Assembly: GCA_016180085.1 (NCBI GenBank)
Contig: JACPBX010000033.1
Coordinates: 1 to 15,148, forward strand
Origin: Candidatus Woesearchaeota archaeon
Lineage (GTDB): Archaea > Nanobdellota > Nanobdellia > Woesearchaeales > UBA10216
Direction of reading: 5' to 3'
Length of the DNA stretch: 15,148 nt
The notes beneath the pieces are model-generated. The model was not told the origin of the DNA. It did not search any database and saw nothing but the letters and a program-made list of their open reading frames with translations. Positions within the stretch are counted from its first letter, which is position 1. Every line of letters begins with the position of its first letter. A program made the translations under genes and the position numbers. Shown in pieces: positions 2,606 through 8,447 of the stretch.

Positions 2606-3430
2606 GTGGCTGATGAGGCAACGATTGCAAAATTAAAAGAAAAGGCAAGGCAGCTGCGAATTGGATCGATTAAGCTCGTTTACCAGGCTAGCTCAGGCCA
2701 TCCCGGAGGCTCGCTTTCGGCAGCAGACATAATGGCCGCGCTGTTCTACCACGCCATGCGTTATGACCCAAAAAGGCCCGACTGGCCTGACAGGGACAGG
2801 TTTATACTGAGCAAGGGGCACTGCACGCCATTGCTGTACTCTGTATTTGCTGATGTCGGATACTTCCCTAAAGAAGAGCTTGCGACATACAGAAGATTGG
2901 GAAGGCTTACAGGGCACCCAAACCCCAAGCTGCCTGGGGTTGAAATAGCAACTGGCTCGCTCGGGCAGGGGCTTTCTGTAGGGCACGGGATGGCGCTTGC
3001 AGGGAAGCTGGATAAGAAGGATTACTACGTTTACGTGCTGCTTGGGGATGGAGAATGCAATGAAGGCCAGGTATGGGAGGCAGCAATGTCTGCGGCACAC
3101 TACAAAAGCGACCACCTGATTGCCATTGTTGACAACAACAAGGTAGCGCAGGATAATTTGACTGCAAACCTGAAAGGCATTGAACCTGTTGACAAAAAGT
3201 TCGAGGCATTCGGCTGGCACGCGATAAGGATAGACGGGCATAACATGGCAGCCGTTATAGACGCTTTAGCAGCTGCGAAAAACGTAAGGGGAAAACCGGT
3301 TGTGATTGTTGCTGACACTGTAAAAGGAAAAGGGGTTTCGTTCATGGAAAACCAGTTCGCATGGCACGGCAAGGCGCCCAGCGAGGAAATGTTCAATAAA
3401 GCAATTGCTGAGCTGGAGGCTCAAAAATGA
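2606..3430 (+). CDS. Transketolase, N-terminal (TPP-binding) subunit
   Basis: Motifs GHPGGSLS, LSKGH, GHP, TGSLGQG, the TPP motif GDGE...DNN, and WHG. GTG at 2606 is preferred over TTG at 2582 because GGGGTG (2595-2600) is an SD-like sequence upstream of it. Confidence 0.96.
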   Translation: MADEATIAKLKEKARQLRIGSIKLVYQASSGHPGGSLSAADIMAALFYHAMRYDPKRPDWPDRDRFILSKGHCTPLLYSVFADVGYFPKEELATYRRLGRLTGHPNPKLPGVEIATGSLGQGLSVGHGMALAGKLDKKDYYVYVLLGDGECNEGQVWEAAMSAAHYKSDHLIAIVDNNKVAQDNLTANLKGIEPVDKKFEAFGWHAIRIDGHNMAAVIDALAAAKNVRGKPVVIVADTVKGKGVSFMENQFAWHGKAPSEEMFNKAIAELEAQK

Positions 3431-4389
3431 GCACTACAATCACCGCAACAGCCAAAGAGGCGGCAACCAGGGACGGTTACGGAAACGCGCTCATTAAACT
3501 GGGCAGCAGCGACCCAAACGTTGTTGTGCTTGATGCTGGGGTTTCTGATTCAACAAGGACCAACAAGTTTGCAGAGAAGTTTCCTGAAAGGTTCTTCAAC
3601 ATGGGAATAAGCGAAGGCGACATGGTCTGCACGGCTGCAGGGCTGGCGAAGTGCGGCAAGACTGCTTTTGCAACCAGCTTCATATGCTTCCTTCTTGGAA
3701 GGTCAATGGACCAGATACTCGTTTCAGTAGCTTATTCTGACAGCAACGTAAAAATAGTGGGCACACACGCTGGAGTTGCCATTGGCGAGGACGGGCCGAC
3801 TGCACAGGCAATAGGGGACGTCAGCTACATGAGGGCTGTGCCAAACTTCATCGTTATTTGCCCTGCTGATGCTGTTGAAGCAGAAAAGGCAATCATGGAG
3901 ATTGCCAAACGAAAAGGGCCTGCTTATGTCAGGCTGGGAAGGGGCAATGTCAGGACAATTTACGACGACAGCTACAAGTTTGAGATTGGTAAGGCTTCTG
4001 TGGTCGCTGAGGGAAATGATGCGGCAATAATTGCTTCAGGAATAATGGTGCAGGAATCGCTCGCTGCTGCGGAGGTTTTGAAAAAAGAAGGGATAAATGT
4101 GAAAGTTTTTAATATGTCAACAATAAAGCCGATTGATAGGCAGGCAATAATAGCTGCTGCAGAAACAGGCACAGTAGTAACTGCTGAAGACCACAACATC
4201 TATGGTGGCTTGGGAAGCGCTGTTGCTGAAGTATTGGCTGAAGAAAAGCTTGACGTTAAGTTTGAAAGGATTGGCGTTAAAGACCGGTTTGCCGAGTCTG
4301 ACAGCCAGAAGGTCCTGTTCAGGAAGTACGGGCTGGATGCTGAGGCGATAGCGGCAACGGTGAAGAAGGCAGTGACTGAGAAGAAATGA
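3427..4389 (+). CDS. Transketolase, C-terminal (pyrimidine-binding and C-terminal domain) subunit
   Basis: ATGA overlap with the N-subunit gene. Motifs ATRDGYG, GISE, THAG, GEDGPT, YVRLGR and EDHNIYGGLGSAVAE. The usual HQ motif reads AQ (see findings). Confidence 0.95.
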   Translation: MSTTITATAKEAATRDGYGNALIKLGSSDPNVVVLDAGVSDSTRTNKFAEKFPERFFNMGISEGDMVCTAAGLAKCGKTAFATSFICFLLGRSMDQILVSVAYSDSNVKIVGTHAGVAIGEDGPTAQAIGDVSYMRAVPNFIVICPADAVEAEKAIMEIAKRKGPAYVRLGRGNVRTIYDDSYKFEIGKASVVAEGNDAAIIASGIMVQESLAAAEVLKKEGINVKVFNMSTIKPIDRQAIIAAAETGTVVTAEDHNIYGGLGSAVAEVLAEEKLDVKFERIGVKDRFAESDSQKVLFRKYGLDAEAIAATVKKAVTEKK

Positions 4390-4415
4390 TTCTATATACG
4401 ATATTTTGCACCCAT

Positions 4416-4438
4416 CTAAAAGTATTTAAGCAAGCTTG
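4416..4438 (+). promoter_or_regulatory. BRE/TATA promoter of the accessory operon, followed by an 8-bp palindrome
   Basis: CTAAAAG-TATTTAAG (TATA 4423-4430) is immediately followed by the palindrome CAAGCTTG (4431-4438). Confidence 0.6.
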
Positions 4439-4453
4439 TTCTACCACGTAATT

Positions 4454-4513
4454 ATGGATTCAACTGCGACGATGAGTGGTGGTTGCATTTGGGCAATCAC
4501 AAAAGACTTCTAA
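4454..4513 (+). CDS. Putative 19-aa leaderless peptide MDSTATMSGGCIWAITKDF (not in the ORF track)
   Basis: The ATG lies 24 nt after the TATA box, the same spacing as leaderless genes elsewhere in this window. It ends at TAA 4511-4513, 26 nt before the wHTH gene. Confidence 0.5.
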   Translation: MDSTATMSGGCIWAITKDF

Positions 4514-4539
4514 AATAGCTGCAGCTGTAAAATTTCAGG

Positions 4540-4767
4540 GTGATTATCGGTGGCAATCGACTGCCGGATAGTTGCGCACGAGTACTTAAAGTTCTCACCG
4601 GTTGCGGGAAAGGAGTTTCACAGCAGCGGCTAATAGCCGAAACAGGGCTTTCTGAGAGGGCTGTGAAGTATGCGATAAAGGGGCTTGTGCAGGAAAAGTT
4701 GGCTTTCTACAAGATAGTTCTTGATGATACAAGGAGAAGACTATACTATGCAGAGGTAGGGAAATGA
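4540..4767 (+). CDS. Small winged-helix (MarR-like) DNA-binding protein
   Basis: GTG start, 75 aa. LPDSCARVLKVL...SQQRLIAETGLSERAVKYAIKGL...DTRRRLY resembles the archaeal LPPSAKLV...TVRYAL...DARQ.LY wHTH family. Confidence 0.8.
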   Translation: MIIGGNRLPDSCARVLKVLTGCGKGVSQQRLIAETGLSERAVKYAIKGLVQEKLAFYKIVLDDTRRRLYYAEVGK

Positions 4768-5147
4768 GAGACTACAGATTCAAAGACGGACAAAGGCTTG
4801 AACACATTGTGCACAGAACCTTGCCGCATGCAAAAAGGTTGGCTAATATCCTTACCGGAATAGATAACTTTGTGAGCATCTACAAAGCTGCACTAACAGT
4901 CGCACATAACCCGAGAGCTATTCCAAATGCGTTGTACACTACAGCGTTTGGTCTGATGAGTACTACGGCTTCACTTACAGCTGATACTGCAATTGCAGGA
5001 ACGATTTACAAAATAGCTTATCTCGATCCAACAAACTTGGAAAGAGCGGCTGATATATTCATTGGGCTTTTTGGTTTTTTGCCTGTTAGCATATTTATGT
5101 ACGTTTTAGGTCGTAGGTTGAATGAGTATATACAAGATACAAGATGA
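4764..5147 (+). CDS. Hypothetical protein with a C-terminal TM segment, 127 aa
   Basis: ATGA overlap with the wHTH gene (translational coupling). Hydrophobic stretch IFIGLFGFLPVSIFMYVLG followed by RR. Confidence 0.7.
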   Translation: MRDYRFKDGQRLEHIVHRTLPHAKRLANILTGIDNFVSIYKAALTVAHNPRAIPNALYTTAFGLMSTTASLTADTAIAGTIYKIAYLDPTNLERAADIFIGLFGFLPVSIFMYVLGRRLNEYIQDTR

Positions 5148-5183
5148 GTTTTGTCATAAGCTAAACGGAGAAGTGGTAGAAAA

Positions 5184-5744
5184 ATGTCAACAGAGATAAA
5201 TGTGCGACTTTTTGAAGCGTTGCAAAAACAGTTTTTCAAGCCTGCAACGTTAGTTGTAGGTTTCACTCTCCTTTTTAGCTTAATATTTTTCAGACCATTA
5301 ATCGCGTCACTATTCCTGATAGCACTAGGGGCTGTTTCTATCATTTACAAGCGCTGGGTAAGTATAGGAATAGATCTTGAACTTTGCAGCCTGTGTGCTG
5401 TTGCCGTAGGCTTAACTTACGGCTCTACTGCAGGGGCACTTTCGGGCGGCATTTCAATGCTCCTAGCCTTAAGCCTAAACGGACACGCGCTAGAAAACCC
5501 GTTTTTTGCAGCTATAAAAATCGGGACTGTTGCAGGTCTGGGCATCCTTGCAAGCATATTTGCCGCAAGTAATTTGGTGCTAATAGCAGGCATTTACACT
5601 TTTGTTGCTGACGCTATTTTTGTAGCAATAGCTTTGCAAACAGGCGGAAATGCCGGCAAATTATTTGTTTTCCTTATTACCCACACTCCAATTTTACTGT
5701 ACCAACTGAAACTGCTTTTACCATTGGCAAAAGCAGTATTGTGA
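5184..5744 (+). CDS. Integral membrane protein resembling an ECF transporter S-component
   Basis: 186 aa with about 6 TM helices. 'LELCSLCAVAVGLTYGSTAGALSG' resembles the S-component 'G..yGp..Ga.vG' pattern. The ORF is confident; the family is tentative. Confidence 0.65.
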   Translation: MSTEINVRLFEALQKQFFKPATLVVGFTLLFSLIFFRPLIASLFLIALGAVSIIYKRWVSIGIDLELCSLCAVAVGLTYGSTAGALSGGISMLLALSLNGHALENPFFAAIKIGTVAGLGILASIFAASNLVLIAGIYTFVADAIFVAIALQTGGNAGKLFVFLITHTPILLYQLKLLLPLAKAVL

Positions 5745-5755
5745 CGGGGGGTAAA

Positions 5756-6688
5756 ATGAAAAATGAAATGACATCTGCTGATTTGGAATCAAGAATAAAA
5801 GAAGCTCATACAACCATATCTAAAACTTTTGGAAAAAATGGCAACGGTGCAGAAAGTGGACGCGTAGTCACCACAGCAACAACACTCGTTGGAGCTGTTT
5901 TACGCCAAATGCCAGAACTTGACCTTGTGAGTGCACCAGACCACATTGCCCTTGCAGAGAATATTGCGCAGAGCTTTGCATCGGGAGGTAAACTAAAAAT
6001 ATTTGCCCCTTCTTGCCCTGACTACAAGCACGACGGCAGCACATACACTTTTGGCGAACTTGGTAACGGCGTAAGCCTCCTTGGGCTCTACCAGATAGAA
6101 TTTGCAGAGAAGCTCCTGCAACTTCTTGACGTTCATGGCGTCCCGTATGATTACATAGTCTTGACGGCCGACATTGAAGTGGAAGATGACGCAATGCTGG
6201 CAAAAAACAGAGTAACAAAAATGGAAGCAATTGAAAAAGTTAAAGGAACAATAAAAGAAACAGGCGAATACGCTAGTGGATTACTAATGCCTCAAAATGG
6301 AAGCACAGTACGCTCAGTTGGATTCTTACAGGAATTCAATGGATTTCCAGAATCGCAAAGGAGATATGAAGTTTTAATCGGGCAACTGCAAACCTCCTCT
6401 GCCGCGTTCAGGAAGGGCTTAGAACACCTTCATGAGGGAAGGCTTGGATTATATTCGAGGCTTTTTCCTGGTGCCAATCAAGCTGAATTGCACAATCTGA
6501 TGCCCCGCACCATAAGAACAATGGCACAGTATGCTACTTTAGGGCAATTGGCGAGAGAGCAAAACGCGGTTATAACTTCTCACAGGACATTAAACATTCC
6601 AGCCTATAATAACCCCAAACTGTTTTTAGGAAGACCAGAGGACTATAGAAGAGTGCCGGTTTTCAACTTTGACAGGGGGATATACTAA
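5756..6688 (+). CDS. Uncharacterised enzyme, about 310 aa; candidate cyclodipeptide-synthase-like / class Ic aaRS-derived (HUP) fold
   Basis: ATG 5756 follows an SD-like G-run (5746-5752); the track starts it at GTG 5741. Motif-like segments: FAPSCPDY, IVLTADIE, EAIEKVKGTIKE, RTMAQY, AVITSH. The ORF is confident; the function is inferred. Confidence 0.75.
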   Translation: MKNEMTSADLESRIKEAHTTISKTFGKNGNGAESGRVVTTATTLVGAVLRQMPELDLVSAPDHIALAENIAQSFASGGKLKIFAPSCPDYKHDGSTYTFGELGNGVSLLGLYQIEFAEKLLQLLDVHGVPYDYIVLTADIEVEDDAMLAKNRVTKMEAIEKVKGTIKETGEYASGLLMPQNGSTVRSVGFLQEFNGFPESQRRYEVLIGQLQTSSAAFRKGLEHLHEGRLGLYSRLFPGANQAELHNLMPRTIRTMAQYATLGQLAREQNAVITSHRTLNIPAYNNPKLFLGRPEDYRRVPVFNFDRGIY

Positions 6689-6689
6689 A

Positions 6690-7313
6690 ATGCCGCCCAT
6701 TTTTATGAAAGTAGCTCCATACGGCTACGGCAATGGAAAAAAGAAGGCTGAACTACGATATTACGCCAGTTTAGCGGCACAGCACATATCTCCACCGCTG
6801 CTGCCTGATTCGGAAGAGTACATCTTGAAACACGTCAAAAGGTACGACTTAAAGAATGTAAGACTTATCCTAAGCTCACCACAGAAGCGCGCATTACAAA
6901 CTGCAGGGATGATTAGGCGGCTGTTTCTTAACAACGCCCATGTGAAAGTTGATGCAAATCTCAATGAAGTGCCATTTTCGCTTTATGGGCTAGATTCAAG
7001 GAAGTACTCCAGTACAATTGCTAGAAATAAGTTTTTTGATGATTTTGTCAATAACAGGCTTCTGGAGTCGCGTGACTACCTCAAAAGCCGCGTAGAAAGA
7101 ATTTTAAGAAAAGCCAAAGACACAGACACTCTATTTGTAACTCACACGTTCCTGATGAAAATTTTAGAAAAGCTCATTGAATGCCCCGACCTGTTCAAAC
7201 ATCCTCAAAAATTCATTAGGAACGTCAACTTAAACAAGAGGTTGTTTGAATACTGTGAAATTTTAAAACTTACAAACAGGGAAATAAAGCAAACTTTAAA
7301 TAAACTAGGGTAG
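6690..7313 (+). CDS. Histidine phosphatase superfamily homolog lacking the RHG motif
   Basis: ATG 6690 lies 1 nt after the upstream stop, with GGGGG upstream. It retains LSSPQKRALQTA, LNEVPF and LFVTH, but the first strand reads IFMKVAPY instead of xxRHG. Confidence 0.8.
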   Translation: MPPIFMKVAPYGYGNGKKKAELRYYASLAAQHISPPLLPDSEEYILKHVKRYDLKNVRLILSSPQKRALQTAGMIRRLFLNNAHVKVDANLNEVPFSLYGLDSRKYSSTIARNKFFDDFVNNRLLESRDYLKSRVERILRKAKDTDTLFVTHTFLMKILEKLIECPDLFKHPQKFIRNVNLNKRLFEYCEILKLTNREIKQTLNKLG

Positions 7314-7325
7314 AGGATTTAAACC

Positions 7326-8447
7326 ATGCCAAAAGAATTCACGGTAACACCGTGGAAGGTAGAGGGAGAGGTCGATTATACCAAGCTCATAAAGGAGTTC
7401 GGGACAGAGGCTGTTGATGATAAGCTGCTGCAGCGGATAAAGAAGCACACCGGCGAGCTTCACCACATGCTGCGCAGGAAGATATTCTTCTCCCACCGCG
7501 ATATGAACTGGCTTCTGGACGAGTACGAGAAAGGCAACAAGTTCTACCTTTACACAGGCAGGGGGCCATCCGGGCACACTCATTTGGGGCATCTTGTGCC
7601 ATGGATGTTCACCAAGTGGCTGCAAGACAAGTTTGATGTCGAGCTGTGGTTCCAGCTGACCGACGACGAGAAATTCATGTTCAACGACAAGCTCGAGCTT
7701 GAGGAAACAAACAGGCTGGCTTATGAAAACGCGCTTGACGTGATAGCGCTTGGTTTCAAGAAAGGGAAAACAAAAATTTTCGCAGATACTGATTATGCAA
7801 AGACGCTGTACAGGCAGGCCATACGGGTTGCCAAGAAGCTGACCGTGTCTACTACAAAGGCCGTGTTTGGCCTGACAGATAGCAACAGCGTAGGGGAGCA
7901 TTTTTTCACATCGGTGCAAAGCGTACCGGCTTTCTTGCCATCAGTTTTGGCAGGCAAAAACATTCCGTGCTTGATTCCTCATGCAATTGACCAGGACCCG
8001 CACTTCCGTGTAACTCGCGATATTGTTCATAAGCTAGGCTACTACAAGCCTGCAGCAATACATTGCATTTTCCTGCCTGCTTTAACTGGGCCAAAAGGGA
8101 AAATGTCTGCTTCAATTGCAGAAACTGCAGTTTATACTACCGATGCCCCCGAAGTTGTTGAAAAAAAGATAAGGAAATACGCATTTTCTGGCGGGAGGGA
8201 TACCGTTGAGGAGCATCGCAAGAAAGGCGGGAATCCTGATATTGACGTTTCTTATCAGTGGCTAAGGTTCTTTGAGGAAGACGACAGAAAACTTGAAAAA
8301 ATTTACCATGACTACAAGAGCGGGAAGCTGTTAAGTGGTGAATTGAAAGAGATTTTGATTGAAAAGCTGGGGAAATTCTTGATGAAGCACCAGGAAAACA
8401 GGGAAAAAGCGAGAAAAGCGCTTGATTCCTACATTCTAAAGGACTGA
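7326..8447 (+). CDS. trpS: Tryptophan--tRNA ligase (archaeal/eukaryotic type)
   Basis: YTGRGPS, HIGH-equivalent HLGH, QLTDDEK, AIDQDPHFR, KMSAS, and FSGG...GGNPDIDV. Confidence 0.98.
   Translation: MPKEFTVTPWKVEGEVDYTKLIKEFGTEAVDDKLLQRIKKHTGELHHMLRRKIFFSHRDMNWLLDEYEKGNKFYLYTGRGPSGHTHLGHLVPWMFTKWLQDKFDVELWFQLTDDEKFMFNDKLELEETNRLAYENALDVIALGFKKGKTKIFADTDYAKTLYRQAIRVAKKLTVSTTKAVFGLTDSNSVGEHFFTSVQSVPAFLPSVLAGKNIPCLIPHAIDQDPHFRVTRDIVHKLGYYKPAAIHCIFLPALTGPKGKMSASIAETAVYTTDAPEVVEKKIRKYAFSGGRDTVEEHRKKGGNPDIDVSYQWLRFFEEDDRKLEKIYHDYKSGKLLSGELKEILIEKLGKFLMKHQENREKARKALDSYILKD

Follow-up and report, generated by a model that had tools for sequence, protein, structure and literature searches.

The DNA analyzed here is a stretch of 15,148 nucleotides (nt) from a Candidatus Woesearchaeota archaeon (assembly GCA_016180085.1, contig JACPBX010000033.1), called the window in what follows, and the element in question is an open reading frame (ORF) of 19 codons at positions 4454-4513. 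The ORF lies in a 150-nt gap between the gene for a transketolase C subunit (3427-4389) and a 75-codon gene for a winged helix-turn-helix (wHTH) protein, which belongs to an operon that ends with the gene for tryptophan--tRNA ligase (TrpRS). Most likely, to judge from sequence comparison, the 19-codon ORF is the zero-frame start of this wHTH gene, which would be recoded: serial programmed +1 frameshifts at 'hungry' codons, similar to the frameshift of prfB, would make the regulator only when the charging of a tRNA is low. The probability of this reading is about 0.7. It is carried by the arithmetic of the reading frames, by a conserved nucleotide motif, and by the match between one codon of that motif and the operon that follows.

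The ORF runs from a conserved ATG at 4454 to TAA at 4511-4513 and reads MDSTATMSGGCIWAITKDF. A first-pass annotation of the window had described it as SGG followed by CIWAITKDF with a single Trp codon, and this is indeed how the frame reads; the lone Trp codon is TGG 4490-4492. The frame of the winged-helix (MarR-like) DNA-binding protein spans 4540-4767, with a conventional start at GTG 4540 and an entry at 4552 in the frameshift model. Both frames, like all other features located below by window coordinates, are on the + strand. The window was compared with related genomes and loci, which are designated by G and L codes where they have to be told apart; G000 is the genome of the window itself. 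None of the conclusions depends on G135 and G440, two genomes flagged as unpublished.

The conserved motif

The central element of the leader is a conserved motif of 16 nt, which consists of a Shine-Dalgarno (SD)-like GGTGRT, a TRY codon, a slippery codon and TGG. Its variation across genera can be written as (G/A)G(T/C) G(G/A)T T(G/A)(C/T), then CTT, ATT, TTT or CGG, then TGG followed by G, C or A. Most loci, including the window, contain a second copy, the register of which differs from that of the first. Motif 1 of the window, delineated by cross-genus nucleotide conservation and by its frame relations to the wHTH gene, is GGT GGT TGC ATT TGG G (4478-4493). Its E-site codon is TGC, its P-site codon is ATT (4487-4489), its sensor codon is TGG (4490-4492), and the +1 codon is GGG (4491-4493). 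Motif 2 is GGT GAT TAT CGG TGG C (4539-4554), in which the SD-like GGTGAT is followed by the E-site codon TAT, the P-site codon CGG (4548-4550), the sensor TGG (4551-4553) and the +1 codon GGC (4552-4554). The two shift sites are 61 nt apart, which is 1 mod 3.

The motif shows no synonymous drift across genera, and its few changes are non-synonymous in the frame of the small ORF. The residues 5' of the motif are variable and the tail after Trp is not conserved in sequence. The conservation of all codon positions, together with the presence of copies in different registers, argues that the constraint acts on nucleotides and not on a peptide.

This bears on the proposal, made in the first-pass annotation, that the 19-residue peptide is itself the product, being either a double-glycine precursor or pheromone, or a signal or substrate modified by an enzyme of the operon. 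The ORF is probably translated, given its leaderless ATG, and it contains GG followed by a tail with Cys and Trp. Double-glycine precursors are cleaved at a GG, GA or GS site after a leader of 15-30 residues, and a C39 peptidase or an ABC exporter is encoded nearby. The GG is not conserved, however: GD, SG, DG or VG replaces it in relatives, where SGG gives way to SGD, NGG, SSG, RDG, RVG or TGD. Of the supposed core CIWAITKDF only C-[LI]-W is conserved, and the length of the entire zero frame ranges from 10 to 52 codons. The conserved letters recur in the second copy of the motif, which one fixed frame reads differently. Neither a C39 peptidase nor an ABC exporter was found in the window, nor any peptidase or exporter in the operon, and many orthologous loci have the leader but lack the enzyme genes between wHTH and TrpRS. 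A peptide product is thus hardly credible.

The SD-like sequences GGTGGT and GGTGAT each end 3 nt 5' of the P-site codon. Two genomes of this family have the 16S tail GGATCACCTCC, and in G000 the regions upstream of genes are enriched in SD-like motifs. The P-site codon is +1-slippery in most instances (CCC-N, CUU-U, AUU-U, UUU-U and GUU-C), and re-pairing in the P site after a +1 slip is possible at motif 1, where the codon is AUU in the window, CUU or UUU in relatives, and CCC or GUU in other sensor classes.

In the genes of G000, in-frame NNT-TGG pairs occur at roughly half the expected frequency (CTT 0.53, ATT 0.34, TTT 0.62, GTT 0.53), and NNC-TGG pairs are not depleted. This depletion is general and not specific to the motif; it may reflect avoidance of shift-prone pairs or just a bias at the T-T junction.

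Reading frames of the leader and the wHTH gene

The offset between the ATG frame and the wHTH frame grows by +1 with each motif. Among the Trp loci, the wHTH gene is in frame +1 relative to the ATG frame wherever there is one motif (six of six) and in frame +2 wherever there are two (17 of 17, the window included). Leaders of the other classes (Cys, Thr, Pro and His) with one, two and three motifs have offsets of +1, +2 and +3. The automatic rule for shift sites, when loosened, over-triggered inside some wHTH genes, and the sites there were read by hand. A simulated +1 step after each P-site codon gives one continuous ORF, down to the wHTH stop, in every complete locus. The product simulated for the window has 12 + 20 + 71 = 103 residues.

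Between the ATG and motif 1, none of the 23 loci has a stop in the zero frame, and all 23 have at least one in the +1 frame. Between motif 1 and motif 2, it is the +1 frame that is free of stops in all 17 loci (295 codons), whereas the wHTH frame has at least one stop in 16 of the 17 and the zero frame has a stop in eight. Against the empty 295 codons of the in-between frame, the other two frames contain about 24 and about 14 stops. In the window this middle segment comprises 20 codons in frame +1 (GQSQK...GDYR, 4491-4550), and reading that fails to shift at motif 2 ends at TAG 4569-4571. The eleven distances found between shift points are 19, 28, 31, 34, 52, 61, 64, 67, 70, 76 and 157 nt, all of which are 1 mod 3. 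In two loci, L027 (G006:C4) and L053, a hairpin-rich insertion of about 90 nt is located between the shift motif and the wHTH gene, within the +1-frame segment, and contributes to one of these distances. It is open and in frame, and the linker may here tolerate a small mobile element.

The full wHTH frame has no available ATG, GTG or TTG in G017, G021, G040, L038, G133, G019:C77, G393, G501:C87 and G490:C6, and the same is true of paralog A of G020 and G022. In these lineages a stop lies just upstream and no start codon precedes the DNA-binding helices, so that several lineages have no conventional route to the wHTH protein. Nor is the frame pattern an assembly error, because independent assemblies of four groundwater runs have no indel across 4380-4800.

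Other ways of connecting the frames were considered and rejected. A single -1 shift from the 19-codon frame fails in G000, because the wHTH frame opens only after 4530 and the 19-codon frame has already ended at 4513. Were translational bypass to connect motif 1 with motif 2, the take-off and landing codons would differ (AUU and CGG), and one-motif relatives would still need a +1 step. No bulge-helix-bulge structure can be drawn for an archaeal intron between the repeats, and the one-motif forms keep the first unit. Transcript slippage was discarded as well, the longest run of T being 3.

The leaderless start and the promoter

Comparison across genomes revealed a conserved promoter at 4405-4429, composed of an upstream element, TTTGCACCCATCTAAAAG, and the TATA box TATTTAA (4423-4429). 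In G000, TATA-like heptamers peak sharply 32-30 nt 5' of the ATGs of long ORFs and nowhere else (about 140 of 826 ORFs). Such a sharp peak about 30 nt before the ATG is the signature of leaderless mRNAs. TATTTAA starts exactly 31 nt 5' of ATG 4454, at the genome-wide peak, and the start at this ATG therefore fits a leaderless gene. The earlier claim that the ORF begins at the predicted transcription start site agrees with this spacing.

A frame started by ATG is found at the same place in all 23 distinct related loci and is free of stops up to the motif. The length from ATG to motif is 21, 24, 30, 36 or 39 nt, the differences always being whole codons. An equivalent ORF, the lack of which the first-pass annotation would have taken as refutation, is present in every orthologous locus, and on this comparative evidence the 19-codon ORF is more than a chance frame. 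The test of conservation and synonymous change suggested there gave a divided answer: the place of the ORF is conserved in 23 of 23 loci, but the lack of synonymous drift in the motif points to constraint on the nucleotides, not on the peptide.

The 22-nt promoter pattern occurs once per genome, always at the wHTH locus, in 14 of the 25 genomes of the family, and a search of metagenomes with it added seven more distinct loci. The conserved element just 5' of the TATA box is a candidate target of the wHTH regulator. The only near-copy in G000 (G000:C3:25144-25165, L020; two mismatches) precedes the gene for ribosomal protein L11, so the promoter element does not point to a Trp regulon; some of its conserved sequence may just be the mark of a strong promoter. 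Three loci, L004, L008 and L012 (G011, G005 and G023), have a small pair of genes on the opposite strand inserted between the transketolase gene and the leader promoter, which, judged by eye, looks like an AbrB-type antitoxin and its partner. In these loci the conserved promoter and leader travel with the wHTH gene and not with the transketolase gene.

The putative sensor codon and the downstream operon

With a sense codon at the A site, the sensed signal would be the charged cognate tRNA, and the sensor codon can be compared with the operon behind it. The window's TrpRS gene (7326-8447; NCBIfam NF008927 equivalog, 523 bits against a cut-off of 478) is presumed to be the target of the Trp sensor. 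Every UGG-type locus of sufficient length has a TrpRS gene behind it on the same strand, which makes 16 distinct loci, apart from one further locus in which the gene is adjacent but divergent. In G020 and G022 a UGG-type gene is positioned directly before trpE-G-D-C-B, followed by a TrpRS gene. A paralog in G019 (G019:C77), in which the motif reads TAT CTT-TGC, has the gene for CysRS downstream. An HMMER search yields roughly 1,400 representatives of the family; the comparison of contexts covers the loci listed here.

At ten loci, including one of a different order (G393; leader CGG-TGT), the amino acid was predicted from the leader alone before the gene context was read. Nine of the predictions could be checked and all nine held. 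Cys sensors precede CysRS in G393:C2, cysteine synthase and CysRS in G493:C10 (Cys twice), and a cysteine-synthase-like pyridoxal-phosphate enzyme and CysRS in G490:C6 (Cys twice). The Thr leader of G488:C2, with ACA twice, is followed by tRNA-Thr(UGU) and ThrRS (TIGR00418, 524 bits against a cut-off of 384). Pro leaders precede tRNA-Pro(UGG) and ProRS in G490:C2 and ProRS in G489:C7. His leaders precede tRNA-His(GUG), a hisC-like gene and HisRS in G489:C10, which has three sites, and tRNA-His(GUG) and HisRS in both G488:C13 and G490:C9. The tenth locus, G490:C44 (ACA twice, Thr), is on a contig that ends before any synthetase gene; likewise, the leader of G501:C87 reads Cys twice and its contig ends too soon for a check. 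The sensor codons are thus UGC or UGU before CysRS, ACA before ThrRS, CCU or CCA before ProRS, and CAU or CAC before HisRS. Within a class the A-site codon is constant and the P-site codon is variable. The cognate tRNA genes of the Thr, Pro and His operons are at 522-594 in L149, 538-613 in L151, 438-513 in L153, 286-362 in L154 and 340-415 in L155.

Two leaders are peculiar in other respects. That of L136 (G490:C44) contains four copies of the motif, alternating between CCC-GGT and CCC-ACA. As a shift at either copy of a pair would suffice to reach the next frame, this leader might respond to Gly as well as to Thr. In L133/L176 (G501:C73, 2127 nt) a leader of the type found in the window's genus is on a contig binned into a genome of another order, which is probably a binning error.

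The match between codon and operon is also what speaks most strongly against the motif being mainly a DNA operator, or an RNA hairpin, that the wHTH protein binds for autoregulation, with the small ORF incidental. Each motif does contain a short palindrome (TTGC..GCAA, TGCC..GGCA) and is positioned downstream of the TATA box, where archaeal repressors act, and the minimum-free-energy fold places each motif in a local hairpin. The whole leader folds no better than shuffled sequences, however (z = -0.6), and a scan of 4300-4900 against Rfam, with E up to 10, gave only a chance match to a snoRNA. An operator would leave the conserved leaderless ATG, the whole-codon indels, the open middle frame and the absent start codons unexplained. 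Above all, it cannot explain why, in an otherwise constant motif, one codon follows the amino acid of the synthetase encoded downstream. Binding of this kind is a very unlikely main function of the motif.

Proposed mechanism

The following scheme is put together from the sequence features described above. Its first two steps are read directly from the sequence: transcription that starts at or beside ATG 4454 produces a leaderless mRNA, on which ribosomes begin at this codon and, twelve codons in, reach GGUGGU-UGC-AUU-UGG. With charged tRNA-Trp plentiful, UGG would be read and translation would end at UAA 4511, giving a 19-residue peptide without a known role. With charged tRNA-Trp scarce, the A site would stay empty, the peptidyl-tRNA on AUU would slip by +1, and GGG would be read in frame +1. 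The SD-like sequence three bases upstream, by pairing with the 16S tail, probably aids the slip, as in bacterial prfB. Twenty codons further on, the second motif, GGUGAU-UAU-CGG-UGG, would repeat the test and bring the ribosome into the winged-helix frame. The complete 103-residue DNA-binding protein would then be made only if the charging of tRNA-Trp is low at both checkpoints, and sites in series would steepen the response. The overlap of the wHTH stop codon (TGA 4765-4767) with ATG 4764 of the next gene (ATGA, 4764-4767) suggests that the same shifts would also govern the flow of ribosomes into the overlapping genes downstream. The regulator would then presumably increase the expression of the operon that encodes it, the last gene of which is that of TrpRS. 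The comparison of loci shows the frame arithmetic, the conserved motif and the agreement between sensor codon and operon; that the ribosome slips, that it does so depending on tRNA charging, and in which direction the regulation works is what we infer from them.

Several findings weigh against it. The P-site codon of motif 2, CGG, is unable to re-pair in the +1 frame (GGU), and the +1 step there would therefore have to take place without slippage. Ordinary genes also contain in-frame heptamers such as CTT-TGG-G, so the short site alone is insufficient. Three His loci have the tRNA-His gene between the leader and the wHTH gene, and in one of them the frame is not kept; the post-shift frame is open through the tRNA gene in the other two. 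The Cys-codon (TGT) paralog A of G020 and G022 (in G020, L076 10849-11040, minus strand) is not beside CysRS, nor are the Pro-codon (CCT) genes of G287 and G406 (L130, G287:C6; L131, G406:C39) beside ProRS. In the genomes with such unlinked sensor genes, CysRS and ProRS are on other contigs and have ordinary starts. All organisms compared are metagenome bins, and the bin of G000 holds only 10-12 tRNAs and no 16S 3' end. Finally, the window and about two thirds of the loci have a GTG or TTG in the wHTH frame inside the last motif. In motif 2 the SD-like GGTG and the GTG start are the same letters, and the wHTH protein of the window could also be initiated independently at GTG 4540.

The unlinked Pro genes offer one hint of control in trans: a TTGCC..TAT element in the ProRS promoter of G406 (L192) resembles the one upstream of the sensor gene of that genome.

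The internal GTG is the basis of an alternative in which no frameshift occurs. The small frames would be true upstream ORFs, and a ribosome paused at the sensor codon would cover or uncover the GTG of the next frame and in this way set the amount of wHTH initiation. Such stalling accounts equally for the match between sensor codon and synthetase. It also accounts for the fixed spacing between the GTG and the sensor (the GTG is 8-10 nt 5' of it) and, as the GTG is in the +1 register of the motif, for the 1-mod-3 distances; G000 itself has GTG 4540. A precedent exists in mycobacteria, which have leaderless small sensor ORFs with Cys codons (bioRxiv 10.1101/834739). At least ten loci from several lineages, however, have no usable start at the last motif and yet retain an intact wHTH frame. 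The sign of the regulation would also have to flip among orthologous operons with one, two and three motifs, for example between G001 and G000, which belong to one genus. Moreover, stalling leaves the +1-slippery P-site codons (CCC-N, NUU-Y) unexplained. Stalling on its own thus appears unlikely, and serial +1 frameshifting is the preferred reading.

Comparison with known systems

The design of the leader resembles that of prfB in several respects. A short zero frame overlaps, at the shift site, a downstream frame that is in +1, with an offset of +1 per motif in all 23 Trp loci. An internal SD-like sequence is located 3 nt before the P-site codon, which is a slippery one of the CUU type at motif 1 but not at motif 2 of the window (CGG), and one relative reads TAT CTT TG., like the UAU CUU UGA of E. 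coli. As in prfB, slow decoding at the A site would signal how much of the decoding factor is available, and the +1 shift would yield the full product, closing an autoregulatory circuit. The differences are nevertheless considerable. The A-site codon of the leader is a sense codon (UGG here; Trp, Cys, Thr, Pro or His in the family) instead of UGA read by RF2, and charged tRNA would be sensed rather than a release factor. The leader has one to three sites in series, its product is a DNA-binding regulator encoded before a synthetase operon and not the sensed factor itself, and the host is an archaeon with a leaderless mRNA. The leader is therefore prfB-like in design only and is not a member of the prfB family; it would be a new form of programmed +1 frameshift sensor.

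Hungry-codon frameshifting as described by Gallant, and the CUU-AGG-C site of yeast Ty1, differ in being a laboratory starvation effect and the fixed-ratio device of a retrotransposon, respectively. Antizyme is similar in using a +1 frameshift as a metabolite sensor that produces a regulator, but it is found in eukaryotes, responds to polyamines and has a stop codon at its shift site.

Like trpL, TnaC and the mycobacterial poly-Cys small ORFs, the last of which are also leaderless, the leader is a short 5' ORF in which a cognate codon would report how much of one amino acid is available. Unlike trpL, it has one Trp codon per frame instead of tandem codons, and it has no terminator/antiterminator pair. 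It lacks the Trp-x3-Asp-x7-Pro arrest motif of TnaC, and the residues after Trp are not conserved. Scans found no terminator-like sites (4350-4850) and no bacterial promoters. In its coupling to the downstream gene, apparently through a change of reading frame, the leader also differs from attenuation. The first-pass annotation had suggested a Trp-sensing leader of the TnaC type as its second possibility. The Trp-sensing design is supported by the single UGG at a conserved recoding site, by the TrpRS at the end of the operon and by the Cys, Thr, Pro and His versions that precede matching synthetases. Arrest of the TnaC type and terminator attenuation are, on the other hand, improbable as the mechanism, since neither a terminator-like site nor a significant RNA fold is present, and a +1 frameshift that leads into the wHTH gene is more likely.

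At the level of the regulon the logic is that of T-boxes, in that the leader of each operon carries the codon of its own amino acid and a change of codon is a change of specificity. T-box RNA, however, binds uncharged tRNA directly and controls termination, whereas here the translating ribosome would be the sensor, and the Rfam scan of 4300-4900 detected no T-box.

The operon and its variation

The wHTH protein is a bare MarR-like winged helix, consisting of the wHTH core only. Of 19 family members, 17 match Pfam HTH_24 and 12 match MarR_2, and the nearest solved relatives are MepR and other MarR-family proteins (E about 2e-5). The genes between wHTH and TrpRS (4764-7313, same strand) encode proteins of 127 and 186 amino acids, neither of which has a Pfam or NCBIfam match, an enzyme of 315 amino acids without a family match, and a histidine-phosphatase-like protein. 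This gene set differs among relatives, and the small ORFs 3' of the wHTH gene in different sensor classes are not homologous to one another. ARAGORN found no tRNA in the window. The sequencing runs that contain the window are groundwater metagenomes.

Two kinds of TrpRS are encoded behind the leader among relatives, one with 77-92% identity to the window's enzyme and the other with only 29-36%. The leader has thus been kept while the type of synthetase was exchanged.

Significance

A review from 2016 noted that hungry-codon shifts could make starvation-specific trans-frame proteins, of which "no examples are known" (PMC5009743). For archaea, a review of recoding from 2021 names one proven case in cellular genes, a -1 shift, and +1 cases that are only suggested (PMC8211752). 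Full-text searches of the literature found no description of the present sensing scheme. If the scheme is correct, it supplies the natural example that the frameshifting field calls missing (PMC5009743) and adds +1 frameshifting to the one proven case of archaeal recoding (PMC8211752).

There is also a consequence for annotation, since gene callers begin such regulators at an internal GTG, truncate them or overlook them altogether. One prediction of the scheme is that an exchange of the sensor codon also exchanges the amino acid to which the leader responds.

To our knowledge, neither T-boxes nor classical attenuation has been shown in archaea. It seems fairly probable, from the loci compared, that Woesearchaeota and related archaea with tiny genomes have a modular way of sensing charged tRNA with a role like that of T-boxes in Firmicutes. 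A leaderless mini-frame would carry one to three prfB-like slip sites, the A-site codon would name the amino acid, and the slip would yield both the wHTH regulator and the flow of ribosomes for the matching synthetase, tRNA or biosynthesis operon. This would be the first natural regulatory use of hungry-codon frameshifting and, among the cellular genes of archaea, the first programmed +1 frameshift. How archaea match the supply of synthetases and tRNAs to the availability of amino acids is largely unknown, and a ribosome-based sensor that reads a single codon would answer part of this question.
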